Made by a program: the position numbers and the translations under genes. The notes below the pieces were generated by a model. It did not search any database. It was given only the letters and a program-made list of their open reading frames with translations, and had not been told where the DNA came from. This document shows positions 510 to 50,687 of a stretch of DNA of 64,000 nucleotides, piece by piece (the stretch's first letter is position 1; each line of letters begins with the position of its first letter). The stretch comes from Escherichia phage vB_EcoM_E9.1: the sequence record PP886230, one strand, 5' to 3'.

Positions 510-638
510 TTATTAAATCTCCATGTAATAAATGTGTTTTAGTATTTATAAGACTAAAAAAGATTAAATTAAACTAATTTTTATATTCTCTATAGTTTCA
601 TAAATATTTCTATAATACATCTATTAAAAGGGAATGTT

Positions 639-2843
639 ATGGCTGGAACTACAAGTGATTACCTACTCCAGCAGTTGGTTAATCAAACTAAAGATAACAA
701 CGATAGTTTGAGTGCTATACGTGAGTTATTGGCTGAAAATATAAAAAATGATAGAAAGAAATCCGGTTCTAAAAGTGGAAAACGTAATGGAAGTAATTCA
801 TCAAGTGCTGGAAACCGTGGCTCTCGAACAAATAACAAAGCTGATGATGGTAAAGAATTTGGAAAAATATTCAAATCATTATCATCTGAAGTATCGAATG
901 TCGGCAAAACTATGATGAGTACGTCTGCAAACGTTAGCAATGTTGTAAACTCACTAGGAATGAGTGCATCTTCATTTGCTGGTTCATTAGCAATGATCCC
1001 AGGTCCAGTTGGTGCAGCAGCATCTGCATTCAAATTGGTTGCTGACGCTGGTTTAGCAGTTTATAATGTGTTAAATGCACAGCTTGAAGTTTATAATAGA
1101 ATAAACAGTGCTGGTGTCGCTCTATCTGAAGGTTACGGCTCCATATTAAAAGGTGCTGGTGCATCAATGATGAGTATTGATGCATTTGGTGAAGCATTAC
1201 AAACTCATAGTGCCGTTGTTGCACAATTAGATGGTGCATATGGTGATGGTGTTTCTACATTTGGTAAATTATTGGGTACTGTGCAACAAGCACAAAATCA
1301 ATTAGGTTTATATGGTGTTTCTCAAAAAACATTAACTGATTTAACTGCACGTAATATTAAATTCCAAAAGCAATTTGGTGGAAGAGAAATGTTACGTAGT
1401 ATGGATCAAGCAAAAAGTACTGAACAGTTTATCATGAGTATGACTAAGTTCAGTAAAAGTATGGGTGAGTCAGTTGATGCACTATTAAATAAAACACAAA
1501 ACTTAGATAAATCATTAGACACACGTTCAATGCAAATCGCATTACAAAACTATTCTGGATTATCTAGTAAAGCAGCAGTTGCAACATCAAAAGCATTTAA
1601 CGAAGCTGCTGCCAGTATGGGTGATGCTGGTGCAGATTTTCTACGTTTAATTTCACATCGTTTAACTATTGGTGGAGTACCAGATGATTTATTGACTCCA
1701 GTACTGAACCAATTTGCTGATTTAGGTGAGAACTTGGTACGTAGTGGTGTTACTGATTCACAAGAAATTCGCCGTCAACAATTGGAATTTGTTAAAAAGA
1801 ACAAAGAACTAATAAAGCAAGATTTATTAAATCAGATACAATTAGGAAACACTACGGCAGCAACCTTCAACCAACAACTACTTGATATGGAAGCTGCGAT
1901 TAATGATCCTAAGAGTCAACCAGCAGATAAACTAACACAATTCACTGATAGATTCAATAGATGGATTAGTAAAGAATTTACTGAACCATTTAATAAAATG
2001 TATGCAGATACACAAAATTCTATTGCGGATTACCTTACTGATATTGCAGACCGTACTGATGGTGCATGGGAATTTATCGGAGAGTTAGCACTTGATGGTT
2101 TTGGTTTGGTTCCTATTGCGAAAGATGCAGTTGCGTATTTGGATAGGATTGGTGGTGAGTTTGAGCAGTGGTTAGAAGGGTTAGGTACTGAAATTTTTGG
2201 TAGTGGATATAATAAAGTTTCAGAAGCATTTGATAGCTTTATGAATAACCTAATGGATCTTCCTGGTAAACTTTGGGATTCTGTTAAAGGTTGGTTTGGT
2301 GGATCAGACGACAAAGTAAAAGTAGAAAACAATTCTGTTACCGATGGTGCAGAAAAAGTTAATAATTATTTTGAAGAAAAAATGAATTCATTTGGTGATT
2401 ATATTTCTAGTTCATTTGATGGTTTTTTAAAATGGAATTCAAGTAGAAACTTTAAACAACCAAAACCCCTTGATGAATCAGTTGCTGAAAAACTTATTAG
2501 TAGTGGTCTTGAAAATAAGCCAAGAGCAACTGCGAGAATCGAAAAATCTGAACATGTTGCACCATATGTTACCATAACTCCAAAAACTTTTGATAAATCA
2601 GCATGGGGTCCAAATGAACCACCAATTCAAGCTGAACCGGACGATTATGAGGCCATGAAAGCGATGATAAATAGTGGTAGTAGTATGGCAAATGCTAATA
2701 ATAATGCCACAATATCAGAAGACATGAAAGAGTTACTTAAAAAACTTGCTGATGTTAATGAGCAATCTCTATCTGCCGTGCAACAGACAAATAACTATCT
2801 AAGAACTATCTCTGAAAACACTCAAGGTGAGAGAAACAGTTAA
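639..2843 (+). CDS. Large virion protein, possibly tail tape-measure / hub protein (gp29-like)
   Basis: 734 aa, Ala/Ser/Gly/Gln-rich and predicted alpha-helical with a Lys/Ser-rich N-terminus; sits immediately upstream of the portal gene. Functional call is inference from composition and size. Confidence 0.35.
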   Translation: MAGTTSDYLLQQLVNQTKDNNDSLSAIRELLAENIKNDRKKSGSKSGKRNGSNSSSAGNRGSRTNNKADDGKEFGKIFKSLSSEVSNVGKTMMSTSANVSNVVNSLGMSASSFAGSLAMIPGPVGAAASAFKLVADAGLAVYNVLNAQLEVYNRINSAGVALSEGYGSILKGAGASMMSIDAFGEALQTHSAVVAQLDGAYGDGVSTFGKLLGTVQQAQNQLGLYGVSQKTLTDLTARNIKFQKQFGGREMLRSMDQAKSTEQFIMSMTKFSKSMGESVDALLNKTQNLDKSLDTRSMQIALQNYSGLSSKAAVATSKAFNEAAASMGDAGADFLRLISHRLTIGGVPDDLLTPVLNQFADLGENLVRSGVTDSQEIRRQQLEFVKKNKELIKQDLLNQIQLGNTTAATFNQQLLDMEAAINDPKSQPADKLTQFTDRFNRWISKEFTEPFNKMYADTQNSIADYLTDIADRTDGAWEFIGELALDGFGLVPIAKDAVAYLDRIGGEFEQWLEGLGTEIFGSGYNKVSEAFDSFMNNLMDLPGKLWDSVKGWFGGSDDKVKVENNSVTDGAEKVNNYFEEKMNSFGDYISSSFDGFLKWNSSRNFKQPKPLDESVAEKLISSGLENKPRATARIEKSEHVAPYVTITPKTFDKSAWGPNEPPIQAEPDDYEAMKAMINSGSSMANANNNATISEDMKELLKKLADVNEQSLSAVQQTNNYLRTISENTQGERNS

Positions 2844-8982: not shown

Positions 8983-9010
8983 GGGACTCTTCGGAGTCCC
9001 TTTTCTTTTT
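8983..9010 (+). terminator. Rho-independent terminator after capsid gene
   Basis: gggactc-ttcg-gagtccc hairpin followed by ttttcttttt. Confidence 0.8.
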
Positions 9011-9013
9011 GTG

Positions 9014-9042
9014 TTGACACACCATCTTTTTTGTGTAATAAT
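9014..9042 (+). promoter_or_regulatory. Sigma70-type promoter (TTGACA-N16/17-TAATAAT)
   Basis: TTGACA at 9014-9019 with -10-like TAATAAT about 17 nt downstream, just after the capsid terminator. Confidence 0.6.
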
Positions 9043-9076
9043 ACGCGTACATTATAAATGAAGAAGAGGAATTTTC

Positions 9077-9997
9077 ATGAAACCAAATGAAGAAAAATTT
9101 ATTAATACAGTGAATGAAAAGTACGGTACTGGTGTGTATTTGTTTGATAAAATGGTATATATTAATGCTCATAAACAGGTTGAACTTTATTGTGTAGAAG
9201 GTGGTCATTATTTCAAAATCACTCCTATGCAAATAGTCCGACCTTCTGCAAAAGGATGTAACATTTGTCAAAAAAACACAGCATACACGACTGAAACGTT
9301 TATTGAAAAAGTTAAAACCATCCATCCAACATTGTCATTTGAGAAAACTATCTACAAAAAACAAAGTGACAGTAATGGGCGAGTCATCGTTACGTGTCAT
9401 AATGATCCGAATGATGTGCATGATTGGATTGTATCTGCCAATACTTTGTTAAGAGGTAAATCAGGGTGTGGTGTTTGTTCTGGTAAAGGCGGGAGGACAT
9501 TGGAGCAATTTGTCAAAGAAGCAAAAAAAGTACATGGTGATGATTATGATTATTCTGAATCATGCTATACTGGTAGTGAAGAATATATGGATATGAAGTG
9601 TAATAATTGCAATGAAAAATTCAAACAACAGCCCAAAGCACACCTTTCAGGACGCGGGTGTCCTAACTGTGGTAAGTATGGATACCAACCATCAAAACCT
9701 GGATATTTCTATGTACAAAAACTAACTAACAATAACAAGACGGTGTACAAATATGGGATCACTGGTGATATGAAACGCCGTGTCAACGAACAAAGCCGCA
9801 ATTCTGAGTTCGAGCATGAAGTACTTATAGAACGCTACTTTGAAGATGGCAATCAACCATTACTGTTGGAAAAGTTCATAAAGAAATACATTGAAAGTGG
9901 TGTTGTAAGTACTGAAGAGTTACCGTCAGGATTTACTGAAACATTTGATGCTAAGTATCTTGAAAGTGTTTTAGAAATTGTAAATACTTTTAAGTAA
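9077..9997 (+). CDS. Homing-endonuclease-like protein: three Cys-rich zinc-ribbon repeats plus C-terminal T5orf172 / GIY-YIG-like domain
   Basis: Three repeats each ending in a CxxC pair (CNICQ, CGVCSG, CPNCG); C-terminus GYFYVQKLTNNNKTVYKYGITGDMKRRVNEQ resembles the T5orf172 signature. Confidence 0.6.
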   Translation: MKPNEEKFINTVNEKYGTGVYLFDKMVYINAHKQVELYCVEGGHYFKITPMQIVRPSAKGCNICQKNTAYTTETFIEKVKTIHPTLSFEKTIYKKQSDSNGRVIVTCHNDPNDVHDWIVSANTLLRGKSGCGVCSGKGGRTLEQFVKEAKKVHGDDYDYSESCYTGSEEYMDMKCNNCNEKFKQQPKAHLSGRGCPNCGKYGYQPSKPGYFYVQKLTNNNKTVYKYGITGDMKRRVNEQSRNSEFEHEVLIERYFEDGNQPLLLEKFIKKYIESGVVSTEELPSGFTETFDAKYLESVLEIVNTFK

Positions 9998-12380: not shown

Positions 12381-12896
12381 ATGCAACTAACAAATTTTAA
12401 GATGTATGAAAAAGAAGGTGGTAATCCTAATTCTTTGTATATGATGTCCGATGAAGGTATGGATTGGTATGAATCTCGTGAATTGTTTGACATTAATAAA
12501 GCAAAATTTATGTATGATATTAACGGTTTAATTGTTTCAGCATCATATAACATTTATGATCTAGTACCTTTAGGTTTTAGTGTTTCTGAAATTGAATATG
12601 ATGGTGATATTAACAAACTTTATGGTATGGTTTACGATGGAAATACTATTCATGACTATATTGAAACTAAAGAAGAAAAAATTGAACGCCTAAAAAATGA
12701 ATTATCTAATTTGAAATACATTGCAATTCAAGAACTTGGACACTTAAAAACGGCTATGGATCTTGAGTTAGCAACTGATGAAGAAGCTGTATTGTTTGTG
12801 AAATTGAAAGATTATGTAACGCAATTGAATTCAATCAAACCAGCAGACATGATCAAGAAAACATTTTCATTTCCAGTTAAACCGGAAAAAAAATGA
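12381..12896 (+). CDS. Tail fibre assembly chaperone (Tfa/gp38-like by position)
   Basis: 171-aa ORF immediately downstream of the fibre gene; AAGGA RBS before ATG 12381 (track start 12339 overlaps the fibre gene). Confidence 0.55.
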   Translation: MQLTNFKMYEKEGGNPNSLYMMSDEGMDWYESRELFDINKAKFMYDINGLIVSASYNIYDLVPLGFSVSEIEYDGDINKLYGMVYDGNTIHDYIETKEEKIERLKNELSNLKYIAIQELGHLKTAMDLELATDEEAVLFVKLKDYVTQLNSIKPADMIKKTFSFPVKPEKK

Positions 12897-28564: not shown

Positions 28565-29383
28565 ATGACAAAATTAAATGAGTTTTTATCAAATGTAGCA
28601 GTTCTAGATACTGAAACTACTGGGGTTGAGAGTGAAGATGATATTATTGAATTTAGTATCTCGTATCCACATACTTCACATGAAAACATTGATACTATTG
28701 ATAACTATACATTGAGATACAAACCCTTGAAAGATATTCCACCAGAGGCATCTGCTGTGCACTTTATCAGTACTGAGGATGTAGCTAATTGTGTTGGGTA
28801 TAAAGATGATTTAGATAACATTGATGCACTTATGGGATGCCGTAAGTATTTTGTTGGTCATAATGTACAATTTGACCGTAGAATGATGGTAGATAACGAA
28901 TATAAATATCGTAACTCAATTTCACAGTACTTACTTGATGAAAATAAATGGATTTGTACCCTTCGTCTTGCTAAGAAAATGTTCGCAGAAGATATTGAAT
29001 TTAAAAACTTAACTCTAAGTTATTTGTGGTATAAGTTTGGATGTTATCGTGATGTTCATCGACCTGTTAATGCACACGCAGCAAAAGACGATGTGTTCAT
29101 GTGTTATCAGGTTCTAATCAAATTAGTTGAAATTGCAATCGAACGTGGACATATTGAGCCTAATGGTGATATTGGTGAGCAAATTGTAACTTTCTGCAAC
29201 ACACCAATGCGTTATCAATTCATGCCATTTGGTAAACACAAAGGTGAGCCAATGAGTACAGTTCCATTGAATTACATTGAATGGATGATTGCTAATAGTG
29301 ACATTTTAGATGCAAGTAACCCTAACTGTGATAAAGATTTAGTATATACATTTGAGTACGAATATAATACTCGAACTAATTAA
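28565..29383 (+). CDS. dexA: DEDDh 3'-5' exonuclease (DexA / ExoX-like) with C-terminal KGEPM-type domain
   Basis: Exo I VLDTETTG, Exo II GHNVQFDRRMM, Exo III HAAKDDVFMCYQV; C-terminal FGKHKGEPMSTVPLNYIEWM. Confidence 0.8.
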   Translation: MTKLNEFLSNVAVLDTETTGVESEDDIIEFSISYPHTSHENIDTIDNYTLRYKPLKDIPPEASAVHFISTEDVANCVGYKDDLDNIDALMGCRKYFVGHNVQFDRRMMVDNEYKYRNSISQYLLDENKWICTLRLAKKMFAEDIEFKNLTLSYLWYKFGCYRDVHRPVNAHAAKDDVFMCYQVLIKLVEIAIERGHIEPNGDIGEQIVTFCNTPMRYQFMPFGKHKGEPMSTVPLNYIEWMIANSDILDASNPNCDKDLVYTFEYEYNTRTN

Positions 29384-29398
29384 TAAAGGTAATCATGG

Positions 29399-30883
29399 AT
29401 GAAAACTTGTAAGTTAACCTTATTGGATGAGGTGAATTGTAAATTTGAGGGACTTGATCCCTCAATTAGACAAAAGATGATTCGTGCAACTGAATATGTG
29501 TTACCATATGCAAAGTTCACACCAGCAGGACGTATTGGACGTTGGGATGGTAAAGTTCAGTTTATGAATTTAGGCGGGACAACTTATTATCATATGTTAG
29601 ATAAGTTATTGCCTATTCTTGATGAAGCTAAGATTGACATTGAATTAGTAGATCATAGGGTAGATTATGGATTTAAATTTGACCCCATTGATGAAGATAT
29701 TTTTAGTGATGTTGTATTCGGTGCAGGACACCACATGGAAGGTAAATCCATAAAACTACGTGAACATCAAGTTAATGCGGTTAATGCATGTTTGGCTAAT
29801 CCACACGGACTACTATTGGCAGCTACTGGTGCAGGTAAAACTCTCATTACTGCTGCATTGTCAAAGAAAGTGCAAGAGTATGGACGTTCTGTTATAATAG
29901 TACCAAGTACTGACTTAGTACAACAAACATATGATGACTACATTATGTGTGGGTTGGATACTGGCATGTTCTATGGTTCACAAAAAGATTTTGGTCACCA
30001 ACATACTATTACGACTTGGCAATCATTTAACTCTCTATGGAAGAAAACCAAGAAAGGTGAAATTGAATTAACTGAACAAGACGTGAATGATTTTATCGAT
30101 GGAGTAGTTTGTGTTATCGTTGATGAGTGTCAAGGTGCAGGCGGTGACGCATTAGTTCAAGTACTTTCTAAAGTTATGAATAACGTACCATTACGTTGGG
30201 GTCTTACTGGAACAATTCCTAAAGATCCGGTAGTTGCCGCGAAAATCAAATGTAATGTTGGTGATGTTATATTTAAAATAACTGCAAAGGAATTACAAGA
30301 TAAACAAATACTAAGTACATGTAATGTGAATTGCATCAAACTAAAAAGTAGTATGAAGTTTGCATCATATGCTGAAGAGTTGAAATACTTAGTAACTGAC
30401 AGAGATAGGATGGCATATGTAGCGTCATTGATATCTGCGTTATCTGAATCAGGAAACACTTTAGTTTTAGTAGATAGACTTGAAGCAGGTGAGTTGCTAT
30501 GTGAATTTTTAGGCATTCCCAAATCAGAATTCGTTCGTGGAGAAACTAAAAAGAAAGATCGAGAATCATCTTATGGTGAAATTCGTTGGGCTGATAATAA
30601 AATACTTATTGCGACATACGGCGTTGCCAGTACGGGTATTAGTATTTCAAGGTTATATAATGTAGTATTGATTGAGCCAGGAAAAAGTTTTGTAAGAACT
30701 ATACAGTCAATTGGACGTGGATTACGCCGAGCAGAAGATAAAGACCACGTAGAAATATATGATATTAGTGGTTCTAATAAGTATAGTGCCAAGCATTTAC
30801 GAGAACGTTTAGCTTACTATAAGGAAGCACAATATCCTCATAGTATAATAGATGTTAAAGATTGGGAAAACACAGCGGGATAA
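29399..30883 (+). CDS. uvsW: SF2 helicase UvsW
   Basis: LLLAATGAGKTLITAALS (Walker A), VIVDECQ (DExQ), ATYGVASTGISISRLYNVVLIEPGKSFVRTIQSIGRGLRR parallel to T4 UvsW (ASYGVFSTGISVKNLHHVVL...LQTIGRVLRK). Confidence 0.9.
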   Translation: MKTCKLTLLDEVNCKFEGLDPSIRQKMIRATEYVLPYAKFTPAGRIGRWDGKVQFMNLGGTTYYHMLDKLLPILDEAKIDIELVDHRVDYGFKFDPIDEDIFSDVVFGAGHHMEGKSIKLREHQVNAVNACLANPHGLLLAATGAGKTLITAALSKKVQEYGRSVIIVPSTDLVQQTYDDYIMCGLDTGMFYGSQKDFGHQHTITTWQSFNSLWKKTKKGEIELTEQDVNDFIDGVVCVIVDECQGAGGDALVQVLSKVMNNVPLRWGLTGTIPKDPVVAAKIKCNVGDVIFKITAKELQDKQILSTCNVNCIKLKSSMKFASYAEELKYLVTDRDRMAYVASLISALSESGNTLVLVDRLEAGELLCEFLGIPKSEFVRGETKKKDRESSYGEIRWADNKILIATYGVASTGISISRLYNVVLIEPGKSFVRTIQSIGRGLRRAEDKDHVEIYDISGSNKYSAKHLRERLAYYKEAQYPHSIIDVKDWENTAG

Positions 30884-30895
30884 ACCCGCTGTTTG
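30872..30895 (+). terminator. Rho-independent terminator after uvsW
   Basis: acagcggg-ataaa-cccgctgt hairpin followed by ttgtg. Confidence 0.55.
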
Positions 30896-30938
30896 TGATA
30901 TAATGTGTCATATGACAACAACAAGGATGTAAAATAAA

Positions 30939-33741: not shown

Positions 33742-34357
33742 ACATTATAGAAAAGCCCGAACTGATATTGACATTGACTTCAAGGATAGTAAAAGCGTAA
33801 TCGCTAAACTTCCATGTGTGCGAAGTACTGAAAAAATTACGGAGGATGGTTTAATCCCCCATAATAGTGGTGTTCATTTTGATAATATACCTATTGACCC
33901 AATCACTGGATTGGCAAGTATACAATATAAAGAAGCTGAAAGGTTAGGGTATCAAAAAGTTGATATTCTTTCACAGTCAGCTTACATGTATGTTCGTGAT
34001 AGAGAGCATTTAAAAGAACTAATGAATCAGGAACCAAATTGGGATCTATTGTTAGAACCCGAAATTGTAGAACATCTATCGCAAATTAAAAAACATGTAA
34101 CTTTATTAAATGTATGGAAGCCTAAATCTATAGACGAACTAGCAATGTTTATTGCAATGATTCGCCCAGGAAAAAGGCAGTGCCAAAGTATGAACACATG
34201 GGACGAAGTTAAAGCTACCATATGGGATTATAGTACTATAGGAACTGACCAAGCAGGAAATAAATTACGATATTTCAAAAAGCCACATGCTTACGCATAT
34301 AGCTTAATGATTGTTGTACAACTAAATGCTTTAGTTGAACATCTTACTTCTTCTTAA
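33719..34357 (+). CDS. Hypothetical protein
   Basis: 212-aa ORF. Confidence 0.55.
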   Translation: MQDSTDSKHYRKARTDIDIDFKDSKSVIAKLPCVRSTEKITEDGLIPHNSGVHFDNIPIDPITGLASIQYKEAERLGYQKVDILSQSAYMYVRDREHLKELMNQEPNWDLLLEPEIVEHLSQIKKHVTLLNVWKPKSIDELAMFIAMIRPGKRQCQSMNTWDEVKATIWDYSTIGTDQAGNKLRYFKKPHAYAYSLMIVVQLNALVEHLTSS

Positions 34358-34697
34358 GAGCCACATTACGACGCTTGATGCGTTTCTGTGGCAAATTGCT
34401 TAAAGAAACTACTGGACCACATACGAAATTCACCGACGGTGTATCGAATCTCTGTGTGTACGGTTCAAATTTCTCCATCTCTTCTTGAAAGAATAGACAA
34501 ACTGGAATGGTTCTATTACTTTGCCACCACCAATCGTGTGCTATACCTAACAATTCGTCTTGCATTGAATCATCCATATCATCGAAACAGTAAAGAGTTG
34601 TATACTGTTTGCTTTTGATTTTGATGATACCAACAAACGTTTTACCATCATACTGGATTACAGTAATGAATGGTGGAATAGTGTTATATTGATTCAT
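34344..34697 (-). CDS. Hypothetical protein, lone minus-strand gene in a plus-strand block
   Basis: 117-aa ORF, Trp-rich (HDWWWQ), basic C-terminus; shares the palindromic divergent promoter region with 34755..35732. Confidence 0.5.
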   Translation of the reverse strand: MNQYNTIPPFITVIQYDGKTFVGIIKIKSKQYTTLYCFDDMDDSMQDELLGIAHDWWWQSNRTIPVCLFFQEEMEKFEPYTQRFDTPSVNFVCGPVVSLSNLPQKRIKRRNVALKKK

Positions 34698-34705
34698 ATT
34701 AGTTC

Positions 34706-34743
34706 CATAAATATTAGTATAAATTTATACCTATTATTTATGG
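34706..34743. promoter_or_regulatory. Palindromic divergent late-promoter region (GTATAAATTTATAC core)
   Basis: 14-bp perfect palindrome 34717-34730 gives a TATAAAT box on both strands; flanked by inverted ccataaata / tatttatgg. Confidence 0.5.
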
Positions 34744-34754
34744 AAGGAAAAACT

Positions 34755-35732
34755 ATGGCTCATCACGGCGTGTTTATGTACCCTTATAATCAGGAAGTAT
34801 CATTGGGCAATTTTAATATGCCATATAGCAATGAAAAACTAACTATATATAGAGGGGCAAATAATAATTTATCTTTTACTGTTCACAACGCTGATGGAAA
34901 ATATACTTTATTGAAAGATAATGAATATCTTACATTTATGATTTTTGATGCACGAAATAATACTAAACTATTTGATGTTGTATTAGAAAAACAAGAACCC
35001 AGTTGGTTATCAGAAAGTGGACAAGGAAGACAAACATTAGGAAATAAAAAGAAAGTATATTATGGATGTATTGTTCCAGCAGGAGTTATTCAAGATACCA
35101 GTCCTGGTTCAAAATATAGATGGAGCATTACTAAAGTAACAATGGATGGTTCACTTATAGAACCAACACAATATCTATACACAGGGATGAACTTTGAGGC
35201 ATCAGCAGAGCTAATAATTTCAGACCAAGCAGCACCTGTATTTGTCCCCAGTACTGAAATATCAGTTAATAAAAATCCAGCATGGACAACTATAAAGCGT
35301 TTATATCATGAACCAATTGGAAATGGTATGATTGGTGAATATGATATTCTCGCATCAACTCCACTACCAGCACAAATGCAGTTTGGATTAGTAGATGGAT
35401 TAAGTAGTATTGCAATCTATTTTGATAAATTTATTGGTAGAATACAGCTACAAGGGTGCTTGTGTAACAACGTACCTAATGATAATGAAAACTATAAATG
35501 GTTTATTATTAAATTAGATGGAAAGGATTATATTGAAAATGGAATTGATTCAGAAGGTTTTCCAAAAGAACTTGACGGAATACAAGCATTTAATTTTAAA
35601 GGAAATTATATGTGGTTACGTTTGGTGGTTGCTATTCATCCCAAAATTGTTCCAGTACCATATGACTATGCTGCTGTCCGAAAAGTGTATGACCCTTTCC
35701 TAACAGTACCTAAAATTTTGATACGTAGATGA
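34755..35732 (+). CDS. Hypothetical protein, probably late
   Basis: GGAAGG RBS before ATG 34755; track start 34689 would include the promoter palindrome. Confidence 0.6.
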   Translation: MAHHGVFMYPYNQEVSLGNFNMPYSNEKLTIYRGANNNLSFTVHNADGKYTLLKDNEYLTFMIFDARNNTKLFDVVLEKQEPSWLSESGQGRQTLGNKKKVYYGCIVPAGVIQDTSPGSKYRWSITKVTMDGSLIEPTQYLYTGMNFEASAELIISDQAAPVFVPSTEISVNKNPAWTTIKRLYHEPIGNGMIGEYDILASTPLPAQMQFGLVDGLSSIAIYFDKFIGRIQLQGCLCNNVPNDNENYKWFIIKLDGKDYIENGIDSEGFPKELDGIQAFNFKGNYMWLRLVVAIHPKIVPVPYDYAAVRKVYDPFLTVPKILIRR

Positions 35733-35758
35733 GACAAAACTAGAAGGTGTGCTATAAT
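35731..35758 (+). promoter_or_regulatory. Sigma70-like promoter GAGACA-N16-(gTGc)TATAAT
   Basis: gagaca 35731-35736; tataat 35753-35758; upstream of the primase gene. Confidence 0.6.
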
Positions 35759-35787
35759 CATTTGTAAGAAAAGACAAGGATTAACTT

Positions 35788-36843
35788 ATGAACGCTGTAC
35801 AAAACATAATGGCACAAATTATGAATGATCCAGTACCTGCGATTGGTACATGGTCACAACACAACTGTCCAGCTTGTGTGTTCAGAGGACATTCAAGGCC
35901 GGATACAAAGCACCGTGGTAATCATATGTTCAATGCAGATGGTTCCGTTTCATATAACTGCTTTAACTGTAGTTTAAAAACTGGTTGGCAACCAGGAAAA
36001 TATATGAGCAAAGATATGGAGTCTTTGCTCATTTCTTTTGGTGCACAAGATAAAGAAATAGAATTAGTTAAGTTTTATATTAAAGAAATGGTTGACAGCG
36101 GTGATTTTGATGCACAAGAAACTGTTGCATCAAAATTGTATGACCGAGTAACAGTACGTGATTTGCCATCAAATGCAAAAACATTTTGGGAATGGGCTTC
36201 TTTACCTGAAGATAAAATTCCACAAGAATTTATAAGTGTTTTGCATAATGTCAATGAAAGAAACCCATATCTGTTAGACTTAGAATTATATTGGTCACCT
36301 AATAAAGAACATAAAATGTATGACAGATTTATTATTCCATATTTCATGAATGGTAAAATTATTGGTTATACTGCACGACATAAATTAAAAGATCCTGGAA
36401 GTACATACAGGTTCATAAATCAAGTAAGTACTAATATACTATATAACTATGATTTATTAAAAGATGAACGAATAAAAACAATTTTAGTATGTGAGGGTCC
36501 GTTAGACGCAGCATTAATGGGTGGTGTATCTGCTAATAACTTTAAATTATCAAACGTACAGATTGATGTATTAAAAGATGCACAGCAAAAAGGTAAAAAA
36601 ATAGTTATTGTTCCAGATAGAGATAAAGATGGATTAATAACTATAGACCAAGCACTTGAAAATGGATTCAGTGTTTCCTTCCCAGACTTTGGTGCTGTAA
36701 GAGAAGGTAGTACAATACGTCATATCAAAGACTTTGAAGAAGCTTGTGCACGATTTGGTAGGTTATTTTGTTTACAATTAATACATGATAGTATAGTAGA
36801 TGAGCCATTTTATATTAAAGCTCAAACGGATAAATGGATGTAA
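35788..36843 (+). CDS. gp61: DNA primase (T4 gp61-like; zinc finger plus Toprim)
   Basis: N-terminal zinc ribbon CPACVF...CFNC; Toprim acidic motifs VCEGPLDAA and VIVPDRDKDG. Confidence 0.85.
   Translation: MNAVQNIMAQIMNDPVPAIGTWSQHNCPACVFRGHSRPDTKHRGNHMFNADGSVSYNCFNCSLKTGWQPGKYMSKDMESLLISFGAQDKEIELVKFYIKEMVDSGDFDAQETVASKLYDRVTVRDLPSNAKTFWEWASLPEDKIPQEFISVLHNVNERNPYLLDLELYWSPNKEHKMYDRFIIPYFMNGKIIGYTARHKLKDPGSTYRFINQVSTNILYNYDLLKDERIKTILVCEGPLDAALMGGVSANNFKLSNVQIDVLKDAQQKGKKIVIVPDRDKDGLITIDQALENGFSVSFPDFGAVREGSTIRHIKDFEEACARFGRLFCLQLIHDSIVDEPFYIKAQTDKWM

Positions 36844-49250: not shown

Positions 49251-50687
<1,437 letters not shown>

Follow-up and report, generated by a model that had tools for sequence, protein, structure and literature searches.

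Two overlapping, face-to-face late promoters probably occupy a 57-bp divergent gap in an Asteriusvirus jumbo phage

The window analysed here is a 64,000-nucleotide stretch of Escherichia phage vB_EcoM_E9.1 (sequence record PP886230), an Asteriusvirus jumbo phage of the PBECO4/121Q-like type, with SHEFM2K and SD-2_S15 at 99.9% identity. Gene ends in our map were anchored on ELP-22, which differs from the window by indels; the near-identical relative that carries ELP22_0368 matches at 99.9% over the 2.1-kb region compared and at 99.4-99.6% across the whole window. Intergenic DNA makes up 4.5% of the window. The divergent gap under study spans 57 bp (34698-34754) and lies between a minus-strand gene for a 117-aa product and the plus-strand gene gp18. 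An earlier note, made from the sequence alone, had described the former as the only minus-strand gene in 15 kb, and this holds even more widely, as it is the sole credible one from ~25.8 to ~49.3 kb of the window.

The plus-strand gene gp18 (34755..35732) is assigned to phrog_14467 and is a homolog of CBB_289 and RaK2_00126. Its 326 codons include the stop codon, so that the encoded protein has 325 aa and not 326, as first noted. We place its start at ATG 34755 because every genus keeps this codon, the in-frame ATG 34740 being limited to Asteriusvirus, and the start-codon calls in several database records were corrected in this way. A purine-rich Shine-Dalgarno sequence, GGAAGGA, can be read at 34742..34748 on the plus strand. 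CBB_289 is found among the structural proteins in the supplement of the CBB study (PMC5259590), and the late or virion character that the earlier note implied for gp18 is borne out by its homologs (CBB_289, phrog_14467), which are virion structural proteins. The gene itself sits among replication genes.

The 117-aa gene on the minus strand (34344..34697) is a homolog of 121Q gp17 and CBB_288. In every relative its product carries the annotation "hypothetical protein", and it falls into phrog_11637, a family of unknown function. The structure prediction proposed earlier for this product yielded an AF2 model (pLDDT 84.7) of a small, conserved beta-barrel that also has helices and a basic tail; fold matches were weak only. 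In an alignment of 39 homologs, the basic C-terminal tail KRIKRRNVALKKK is invariant. The description as Trp-rich was overstated, since the protein has three Trp in 117 aa, which form a conserved WWW motif in the same alignment. The likely Shine-Dalgarno sequence of this gene is GGAA (34706-34703, minus strand), read from the sequence as for gp18, and purine-rich blocks occur at the matching positions of both Shine-Dalgarno sites in all relatives.

Searches for other elements gave negative results. We found no sigma-70-type promoters in the gap, no terminator-like sites in 34200-35900, including the stretch between the upstream plus-strand genes and gp18, and, with E values up to 1 allowed, nothing resembling a known RNA family in 34200-34900. 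The GC skew does not turn, apart from a local shift caused by the minus-strand gene, and a replication origin at the gap was rejected on these grounds.

Within the gap lies an imperfect inverted repeat of 43 bp on both strands (34703..34745). As the earlier note had claimed, its arms TTCCATAAATATTAG (34703-34717) and CTATTATTTATGGAA (34731-34745), 15 nt each and 93% complementary, enclose a perfect 14-bp palindrome, GTATAAATTTATAC (34717-34730, both strands). The outer arms are 1 nt off the axis of this inner palindrome, the two spacers being 3 and 4 nt long. The palindrome is perfect in seven of the eight Asteriusvirus genomes checked (the window, 121Q, UE-S1, JP4, ph0011, TH47 and A4; JNE01 carries one inserted nucleotide that interrupts it) and differs in the other genera (RaK2, EJP2, Munch, GAP32, CBB, Yen9-04, XaC1 and metagenome relatives). 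No second copy is present in the 64 kb, the single match at up to two mismatches being unrelated. As a rare event the palindrome was rejected: perfect palindromes of at least 14 bp are as common in the window (9) as in dinucleotide shuffles (mean 6.1). The significance of the site therefore derives from its conservation and not from its being palindromic.

The heptamer ATAAATA, which is present in both outer arms, shows the distribution of a promoter element throughout the window. It is depleted overall (22 copies vs 37.7 expected), and 16 of the 22 copies are fully intergenic; all 16 aim at a start codon 29-110 nt downstream, mostly that of a virion gene. This is the highest intergenic fraction of all AT-only heptamers, and the excess is significant even against their intergenic rate of 12% (binomial P = 1e-10). 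The T4 octamer TATAAATA was dropped as an informative motif, as it is not enriched (7 copies vs 10 expected); the heptamer is the relevant unit. At +6 from the box, 14 of 18 other sites have an A, which matches the T4 spacing; the two sites of this gap have A at +6 (plus strand) and at +7 (minus strand). A TATA/ATA motif 4-7 nt past the box also recurs at other late sites, and upstream of the box there is no conserved position among the 18 other sites, i.e. no -35 element. A gp55-like sigma factor exists in the lineage: its gene in the near-identical relative, ELP22_0368, is annotated as "sigma factor for late transcription" and matches phrog_12791 at 3e-154 and phrog_234 at 8e-18. This gene is located a short way upstream of the window and is thus not part of it. 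A gp55-like sigma factor was also reported for CBB, and homologs of gp33 and gp45 were not found by the CBB authors (PMC5259590), so that activation may work differently than in T4. Taken as motif statistics, these data show that the late box of the group is most simply read as ATAAATA with a predicted start ~6 nt downstream, and not as the full T4 octamer.

Both genes at the gap have such a predicted box. That of gp18 is located at 34707..34713 on the plus strand, 41 nt upstream of ATG 34755, and that of the 117-aa gene at 34735..34741 on the minus strand, 37 nt ahead of its own ATG (34697); both distances are within the usual range of 29-110 nt. The two outer boxes are unchanged in 16 genomes from Asteriusvirus, Alcyoneusvirus, Mimasvirus, Eneladusvirus and unclassified relatives, with a variable sequence and a spacing of 19-25 bp between them. 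The most distant clade (L023/L024/L045) has CTAAATA at the minus-strand box and an arm spacing of 8 bp; this form of the box also appears in Table S7 of the CBB study (PMC5259590). Most relatives at 30-38% protein identity keep the divergent pair, with longer gaps, a different layout and uncertain start calls, and were left out of the layout comparison. Among four other Asteriusvirus lineages, the whole 43-bp repeat including its centre is 100% identical at 75-95% identity of the flanking genes. Such invariance exceeds what two boxes alone need, which speaks against an account by two promoters only.

Based on these data, the gap is very probably a bidirectional late-promoter region. We further consider it probable that it consists of two ordinary T4-type late promoters on opposite strands, which face each other and overlap, with the palindrome as their shared start-site region instead of their boxes. 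This reading relies on the motif statistics, conservation and geometry, on the gp55-like sigma factor in the lineage and on the virion status of the gp18 homologs. The earlier proposal of a bidirectional late promoter is thus kept with regard to the type of region, which is marked by the outer ATAAATA boxes in 16 genomes, and loses its emphasis on the central palindrome. The TATAAAT that the palindrome presents on both strands carries ATAAATT, which occurs 39 times in the window, 37 times within genes and otherwise only as the palindrome's own two copies, and the centre is not conserved across genera. The conserved consensus boxes are those in the outer arms; they face inward and their predicted 5' ends cross, making the geometry face-to-face and not back-to-back, as had been proposed.

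In the proposed mechanism, each promoter would consist of a -10-like box alone, read by the gp55-like phage sigma factor. The plus-strand box (34707-34713), adjoining the start of the minus-strand gene, would fire rightward into gp18, and the minus-strand box (34741-34735), adjoining the gp18 ribosome-binding site, would fire leftward into the 117-aa gene. Transcription would begin at A34719, six bases past the box, on the plus strand and at ~34728 on the minus strand; as the boxes are 21 bp apart and face each other, these predicted starts cross. The palindrome may then be read as two start-site regions (GTATA per strand) together with ~10 nt transcribed both ways, and the two mRNAs would have these ~10 complementary nt in common at their 5' ends, both starting AUAAAUUUAUAC. 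The same 10-nt overlap is predicted from the box geometry, and the box layout is common to all 16 genomes. As a consequence of the crossing layout, each leader would carry UAUUUAU, complementary to the opposite promoter, immediately ahead of its own Shine-Dalgarno sequence. The inverted repeat and the palindrome would arise from symmetric packing, in the order ribosome-binding-site complement, box and start-site region, followed by the mirror image, which gives two of each within the 43 bp. The same two boxes recur back-to-back at another divergent gene pair, whose gap (509-638) is 130 bp long; by comparison, the crossing layout is what results when two normal promoter-leader units are squeezed into 57 bp. 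Because two polymerases cannot sit on both promoters at once, the promoters would have to compete. The start sites, the late timing and this competition are inferred from the sequence, and no start-site, transcriptome or timing data for Rak2-like phages were found in the literature searched. The minus-strand box could also be conserved for another reason, e.g. as a leader element of the gp18 mRNA.

Alternative explanations differ mainly in what they make of the centre of the repeat. Two back-to-back late promoters within the palindrome would use TATAAAT at 34718-34724 (plus strand) and 34729-34723 (minus strand), with starts at ~34732 and ~34715, respectively. The motif is indeed present on both strands and, at 29 and 24 nt from the start codons, is acceptably placed too; the palindrome is unchanged in seven of eight Asteriusvirus checked, and T4 late promoters tolerate single deviations from the consensus (PMC2988020). 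However, ATAAATT is not avoided within genes as ATAAATA is, the centre changes in all the other genera listed above whereas the outer boxes do not, and the published CBB promoter of the homologous gene is the outer box, which makes this arrangement very unlikely. The symmetry could instead indicate an operator, with the palindrome or the whole repeat bound by a dimeric phage regulator of one or both promoters in Asteriusvirus. The perfect 14-bp palindrome and the identity of all 43 bp despite a divergence of 5-25% in the neighbouring genes between lineages would fit such a role, and the invariance within Asteriusvirus is the part of the earlier operator suggestion that may stand. Across genera it is disfavoured, as the centre is neither palindromic nor conserved and the arm spacing varies between 19 and 25 bp, or is 8 bp in one clade. 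In addition, the palindrome is without a second copy in the 64 kb, no candidate regulator was identified, and the constraint is also explicable by the double use of every base in overlapping promoters and leaders; we therefore rate an operator as quite improbable.

Compatible with face-to-face promoters is the idea that the repeat additionally gates translation, which we regard as possible, if doubtful. In a read-through RNA from an upstream middle promoter, the entire repeat would form a hairpin and partly mask the gp18 Shine-Dalgarno sequence, and the late RNA, beginning in the loop and thus lacking the 5' arm, would be translated. In support, a folding energy of -15.2 kcal/mol (z = -3.2) is predicted for the read-through RNA 34695-34760, nine relatives form hairpins of -7 to -15 kcal/mol in which CUUCC is paired with GGAAG or GAGG, and the predicted late start falls into the hairpin loop. 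The lack of a terminator-like site ahead of gp18, its place as a structural gene among replication genes and a T4 precedent (PMC3014915) also agree with such a gate. Possible sources of middle transcripts come from a search with the middle-type consensus of CBB Table S6 (PMC5259590), which gave 16 matches vs 7.3 expected: the nearest upstream promoter-like site, CGGGATAAAC...TGATATAAT (30876..30904, plus strand), might produce the read-through RNA over the repeat, and TGAGACAAAACTAGAAGGTGTGCTATAAT (35730..35758, plus strand) lies upstream of the primase gene as the counterpart of CBB Porf_290. On the other hand, sliding the partner by 1-2 nt does not make the pairing outside the boxes any worse, and covariation does not support the hairpin. 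Since a pyrimidine-rich complement of one ribosome-binding site always pairs with a purine-rich ribosome-binding site, the hairpin may be an automatic by-product of the symmetry. In the window it covers the GGAA alone of GGAAGGA, z-scores are weak in several relatives (-0.5 to -1.5), and the read-through transcription is itself a prediction.

Besides being a promoter region, the site might also mark a physical end of the DNA, a nick or a place of processing (a terminal-repeat boundary, cos or cruciform cleavage). The annotation of UE-S1 starts an 8,298-bp terminal repeat at the equivalent of window position 34690, that base is also where the JP4 record has been linearised, with "cos ends" given by PhageTerm in the JP4 paper, and the two papers are based on separate libraries and PhageTerm runs. 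The phage also encodes endonuclease VII and SbcCD-like nucleases, which would be candidates for such processing. Conversely, the fEgEco12 paper describes terminal repeats of ~21 kb at a different locus, confirmed by restriction digestion, and deems the UE-S1 repeat probably mis-assigned; after tracing the records and papers of UE-S1 and JP4, we largely rejected a terminal-repeat boundary on this evidence. Furthermore, the UE-S1 library was made with Nextera XT, CBB, GAP32, RaK2 and fEgEco12 have the homologous locus in the middle of the genome, and the two UE-S1 repeat boundaries have no motif in common. An assembly or coverage artefact at the AT-rich inverted repeat, or an orientation of JP4 on UE-S1, may account for the coincidence, and a physical DNA end at this site is most unlikely. 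It also appears unlikely, though less so, that the 43-bp repeat is more than two promoters, i.e. a timing gate for gp18 and/or a site at which virion or replicating DNA has a specific break or nick, at 34689/34690, 13 bp from the repeat. If true, a timing gate would mean that middle read-through RNA is kept untranslated by the hairpin and that gp18 is made from late RNA only, and a break would link a cruciform-prone pair of late promoters to DNA processing by endonuclease VII or the SbcCD-like nucleases.

Returning to the face-to-face promoters, their individual elements are familiar from T4, in which the gp55-dependent TATAAATA box of late promoters precedes the start by about one helical turn (Geiduschek and Kassavetis, 2010; PMC2988020). 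The likeness comprises a single AT-rich box without a -35 element, AT-rich DNA downstream, sites on either strand mostly before virion genes, avoidance of the motif inside genes and a gp55-like sigma factor in the lineage. In contrast to T4, the first base of the octamer is free here (C in both boxes of the gap), leaving ATAAATA as the core, no gp33 and gp45 homologs were detected in CBB by its authors, and the promoters are predicted from sequence. The T4 genes e, soc, 49 and I-TevI have leader hairpins with internal late promoters (PMC3014915). As in these genes, a longer RNA can fold over the ribosome-binding site and the late promoter is part of the 5' arm, so that the late RNA would be devoid of the arm; unlike there, the 5' arm consists of the ribosome-binding-site complement and the promoter of a divergent gene, and the hairpin may be incidental, given the missing covariation.

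Closer to our phage, "Promoter 3" of Rak2-like phages is a predicted late promoter listed in CBB Table S7 and also reported for GAP32 (Buttimer et al., 2017; PMC5259590). Its instance Porf_289 (ATAAATATTGTATA, 210,031-210,044) lies 10 nt from the ATG of CBB_288 (PMC5259590), and the left box of the gap (plus strand, 34707-34713) is its direct homolog, at the same distance of 10 nt to the ATG of the small gene that diverges from gp18. The plus-strand promoter is thus previously predicted. The CBB study analysed only regions upstream of structural genes, and the minus-strand box and the face-to-face layout are absent from it.

With respect to the arrangement, face-to-face or overlapping divergent promoters form a class that was reportedly defined by Beck and Warren in 1988, with Pe/Pc of P2 and pR/pL of coliphage 186 as examples. 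The gap resembles this class in its opposite-strand promoters, 5'-overlapping transcripts and interfering polymerases, all of which are predicted here. Unlike in P2 and 186, the overlap would be ~10 nt with boxes 21 bp apart, which points to interference by mutual exclusion at binding and not by collision during elongation; as both promoters would belong to the same late class, a switch of the lysis-lysogeny type is not expected. Symmetric bidirectional sigma-70 promoters, said to have been described by Warman et al. in 2021, have -10 hexamers that overlap back-to-back and outward starts ~18 bp apart. Divergent transcription from one short, symmetric, AT-rich element would be shared with these promoters. 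A symmetric shared -10 is not what we find, as the conserved boxes are separate, 19-25 bp apart and inward-facing with predicted starts that cross, and the central TATAAAT is neither consensus nor conserved.

Taken together, the site is an ordinary but neat instance of known promoter types. The practical value of this result is mainly in annotation, and the understanding of phage transcription is unchanged. Nevertheless, it gives testable positions for a compact bidirectional late promoter in the Rak2-like jumbo phages, a group used in phage therapy work, and two mutually exclusive T4-type promoters within 35 bp would suit the study of promoter competition with a -10-only sigma factor.

The 57 bp between the diverging genes (34698-34754) are best read, on the evidence of their sequence, as two conserved T4-type late promoters that lie face-to-face and overlap. 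One of the two was already predicted in a related phage: Table S7 of the CBB paper lists Porf_289, a promoter ahead of the homologous structural gene CBB_289, as ATAAATATTGTATA at 210,031-210,044 (Buttimer et al., 2017; PMC5259590). Since Porf_289 sits 10 nt from the start codon of CBB_288, the homolog of the 117-aa gene, it corresponds to the outer left box of our gap. The earlier note described the gap correctly: its length is 57 bp, a perfect 14-bp palindrome (GTATAAATTTATAC) lies at 34717-34730, and the larger inverted repeat consists of TTCCATAAATATTAG (34703-34717) and CTATTATTTATGGAA (34731-34745). Exact ATAAATA boxes occupy the outer arms of this 43-bp repeat, the left one on the plus strand (34707-34713), 41 nt ahead of the gp18 ATG, and the right one on the minus strand (34741-34735), 37 nt ahead of the ATG of the 117-aa gene.

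The surrounding 2.1 kb are 99.6-99.9% identical to many Asteriusvirus jumbo coliphages (including SD-2_S15, SHEFM2K, PBECO4 and phAPEC6), 98.4% identical to 121Q and 65-73% identical to Rak2-like phages of other genera (RaK2, K64-1, GAP32, CBB, Serratia BF, fHe-Yen9-04, Munch, XbC2, XaC1). On the gene map transferred from the ELP-22 annotation, no other credible gene lies on the minus strand from about 25.8 to 49.3 kb than the 117-aa ORF (34344..34697), a longer stretch than the 15 kb of the earlier note. Its 121Q counterpart gp17 is a hypothetical minus-strand gene and gp18 a virion structural protein, and both are surrounded by replication genes (SSB, UvsX, UvsY, polymerase pieces, primase, DnaB-like helicase). 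For gp18 (plus strand, ATG 34755 to 35732, 325 aa), records place the start at the equivalent of 34740 (UE-S1, JP4), at 34755 (most others) or at a later ATG (121Q RefSeq); 34755 is the likely start, as the sole ATG conserved across genera. The BLAST alignment of the window with ELP-22 is interrupted by an insertion/deletion at about 9008-9656, close to the endonuclease gene that comes after the major head gene; the difference may reflect a mobile endonuclease cassette.

For Rak2-like phages, three motif classes are described: RpoD-like early promoters, TGAAACG...TATAAT in the neighbourhood of replication genes and, ahead of structural genes, ATAAATA with an AT-rich stretch behind it; CBB is reported to encode a gp55-like sigma factor, and gp33 and gp45 homologs were not found by its authors (PMC5259590). 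The T4 octamer TATAAATA is not enriched in our window (7 copies, 10 expected). ATAAATA is depleted (22 copies versus 37.7 expected, every shuffle holding at least 22), and 16 of the 22 are fully intergenic, with intergenic DNA making up 4.5% of the window. The intergenic share of ATAAATA copies is the highest among all AT-only heptamers (P ~1e-10 against their 12% background). All 16 intergenic copies have a start codon 29-110 nt downstream, and the genes behind them include the baseplate hub, the major head protein, a tail fiber and several virion proteins. Among 18 other sites in the window and the 25 kb upstream, no position upstream of the box is conserved, and the sixth base past it is an A in 14, which fits the T4 rule that the late box stands about one helical turn ahead of the start (PMC2988020). 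Four copies lie wholly within annotated genes (28902-28908 and 2667-2673, plus strand; 50431-50437 and 50482-50488, minus strand); the latter two both fall in a minus-strand membrane-protein gene (49962-50624) and might be internal promoters, or the gene start might be mis-called. A late sigma factor gene, so annotated and matching PHROG late-sigma-factor families, lies just upstream of and outside the window in ELP-22, a relative almost identical to it (99.4-99.6% across the full window). After it in that genome (L022:19213-23736, in the extracted ELP-22 sequence) come genes for SbcD-like and SbcC-like 'palindrome specific endonuclease' proteins and for endonuclease VII, enzymes for which cruciform-prone repeats like the 43-bp one could be substrates.

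The earlier note suggested that one symmetric element, reading TATAAAT on both strands, could act as two back-to-back late promoters or as a dimeric operator. The promoter reading is partly supported: the gap very probably holds late-promoter boxes, but in the outer arms and facing each other. The central palindrome holds ATAAATT on both strands, and these are the only intergenic copies among 39 in the window. With 37 of 39 copies elsewhere, the phage does not avoid ATAAATT in genes, which makes it unlikely as a working box. Nor is a perfect 14-bp palindrome unusual in DNA this rich in AT: nine of at least 14 bp occur in the window, versus a mean of 6.1 in shuffles. We aligned the gap across 14 GenBank genomes and those metagenome contigs that encode a homolog of the small protein. 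All 16 alignable genomes have both outer boxes; between them most positions have changed and the length varies from 19 to 25 bp. In the most distant compact-gap clade (46% protein identity) the boxes are spaced 8 bp apart and the right one reads CTAAATA, which also figures as a variant in the CBB list (PMC5259590). The perfect central palindrome is limited to Asteriusvirus, in seven of eight genomes checked (the window, 121Q, UE-S1, JP4, ph0011, TH47, A4); JNE01 has a 1-nt insertion within it. All 43 bp of the repeat are unchanged in ph0011, TH47, A4 and JNE01 (bar its insertion) while the flanking genes there are 75-95% identical. This constancy can be explained by each base serving two promoters and two leaders; a genus-specific operator is conceivable but unlikely.

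In the face-to-face arrangement, the predicted starts lie 6 or 7 bases past each box, at about A34719 for the plus-strand RNA and A34728 for the minus-strand RNA, so that the two RNAs would overlap by about 10 nt, each starting with AUAAAUUUAUAC. The central GTATA...TATAC halves fit the TATA/ATA start-region pattern found 4-7 nt past other late boxes. In each leader UAUUUAU, the complement of the opposite box, would stand immediately ahead of that leader's purine-rich ribosome-binding site (GGAAGGA in the case of gp18, GGAA in that of the small gene). The 43-bp repeat would accordingly consist of a ribosome-binding-site complement, a box and a start site, stacked against their mirror image. 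The crossing layout would result from two normal promoter-leader units of about 45 nt sharing 57 bp. As two polymerases cannot bind both at once, we infer that the promoters should compete. An internal contrast is the second divergent pair, in a 130-bp gap (509-638), whose ATAAATA boxes are back-to-back: 549-543 (minus strand) on the side of the baseplate hub gene and 600-606 (plus strand) on that of a virion structural gene.

Pfam gives no match for the 117-aa product, which falls in phrog_11637, a family of no known function. 'Trp-rich' applies to it only in the sense of a conserved WWW motif. A word-index search returned fifty close homologs, every one at least 46% identical, with shared invariant residues in a WW.QSNR.IP block and in the KRIKRRN..LK tail, and a full profile search gave 216 clusters at 50% identity, of similar length throughout and none named. 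The AlphaFold model is confident (pLDDT 84.7), with three N-terminal strands, a long helix, two short helices, two strands and a low-confidence basic tail; BFVD returned its own family alone. From the modelled fold class and the basic tail, nucleic acid binding is at most a reasonable guess. The CBB homolog is absent from the listed virion proteins (PMC5259590 supplement). The 3' end of the gene (34344-34357) overlaps convergently, by 14 nt, the 3' end of a 212-aa gene annotated as DNA polymerase (phrog_11778, weak Pol III alpha finger domain match), which late minus-strand RNA would enter antisense; the only minus-strand terminator-like site is weak (33865-33836).

It is conceivable, if rather doubtful, that the repeat also gates gp18 translation through a hairpin in read-through RNA. 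No terminator-like site was found in 34200-35900, and a pattern search (TGRGACA...TGnTATAAT) placed plus-strand middle-type promoter-like sites at 30876 and 35730, with others at 12894, 16833, 20422, 25643, 25718, 42125, 47822 and 58450. The pattern has 16 matches in the window versus 7.3 expected, a number reached by no shuffle; the sites stand ahead of replication and nucleotide-metabolism genes and fit the CBB 'Promoter 1' class. Plus-strand read-through RNA would hold both arms (predicted fold -15.2 kcal/mol, z = -3.2), and nine relatives form similar predicted hairpins, in which a CUUCC block pairs with the gp18 ribosome-binding site. Because the predicted late start falls in the loop, the 5' arm would be missing from late RNA, an arrangement with precedents in the T4 genes e, soc, 49 and I-TevI (PMC3014915). 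Yet a ribosome-binding-site complement pairs with the ribosome-binding site by necessity, and outside the boxes the arms pair no better than they do when one partner is shifted by one or two bases.

The records also suggested a DNA end at 34689/34690 (L002:1289/1290, L010:1 and L011:15742 in our extracted loci). UE-S1 has an annotated 8,298-bp terminal repeat starting at the equivalent of 34690, and the JP4 record is linearised at the same base. Both papers used PhageTerm, UE-S1 with a Nextera XT library, and JP4 was reported to have 'cos' ends. In UE-S1 one T is missing at this junction, so that its 117-aa gene is annotated in truncated form, and just ahead of the right edge of its annotated repeat UE-S1 has a 584-aa CDS (L012:6419-8170, in the extracted UE-S1 sequence) with no counterpart there in the window. 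We consider a genome terminus here unlikely because the fEgEco12 paper confirmed repeats of ~21 kb at another locus by restriction digestion, and because the homologous locus is mid-genome in CBB, GAP32, RaK2 and fEgEco12; the same paper considers the UE-S1 repeat probably mis-assigned. Still, two end calls coincide to the nucleotide, with an AT-rich inverted repeat 13 bp away; the coincidence could reflect a real nick or break, or an artefact of library, assembly or record orientation. Overall the interest of the gap is modest, and it is the face-to-face layout of the promoters, the possible translational gate and this odd PhageTerm coincidence that make it worth an experiment.
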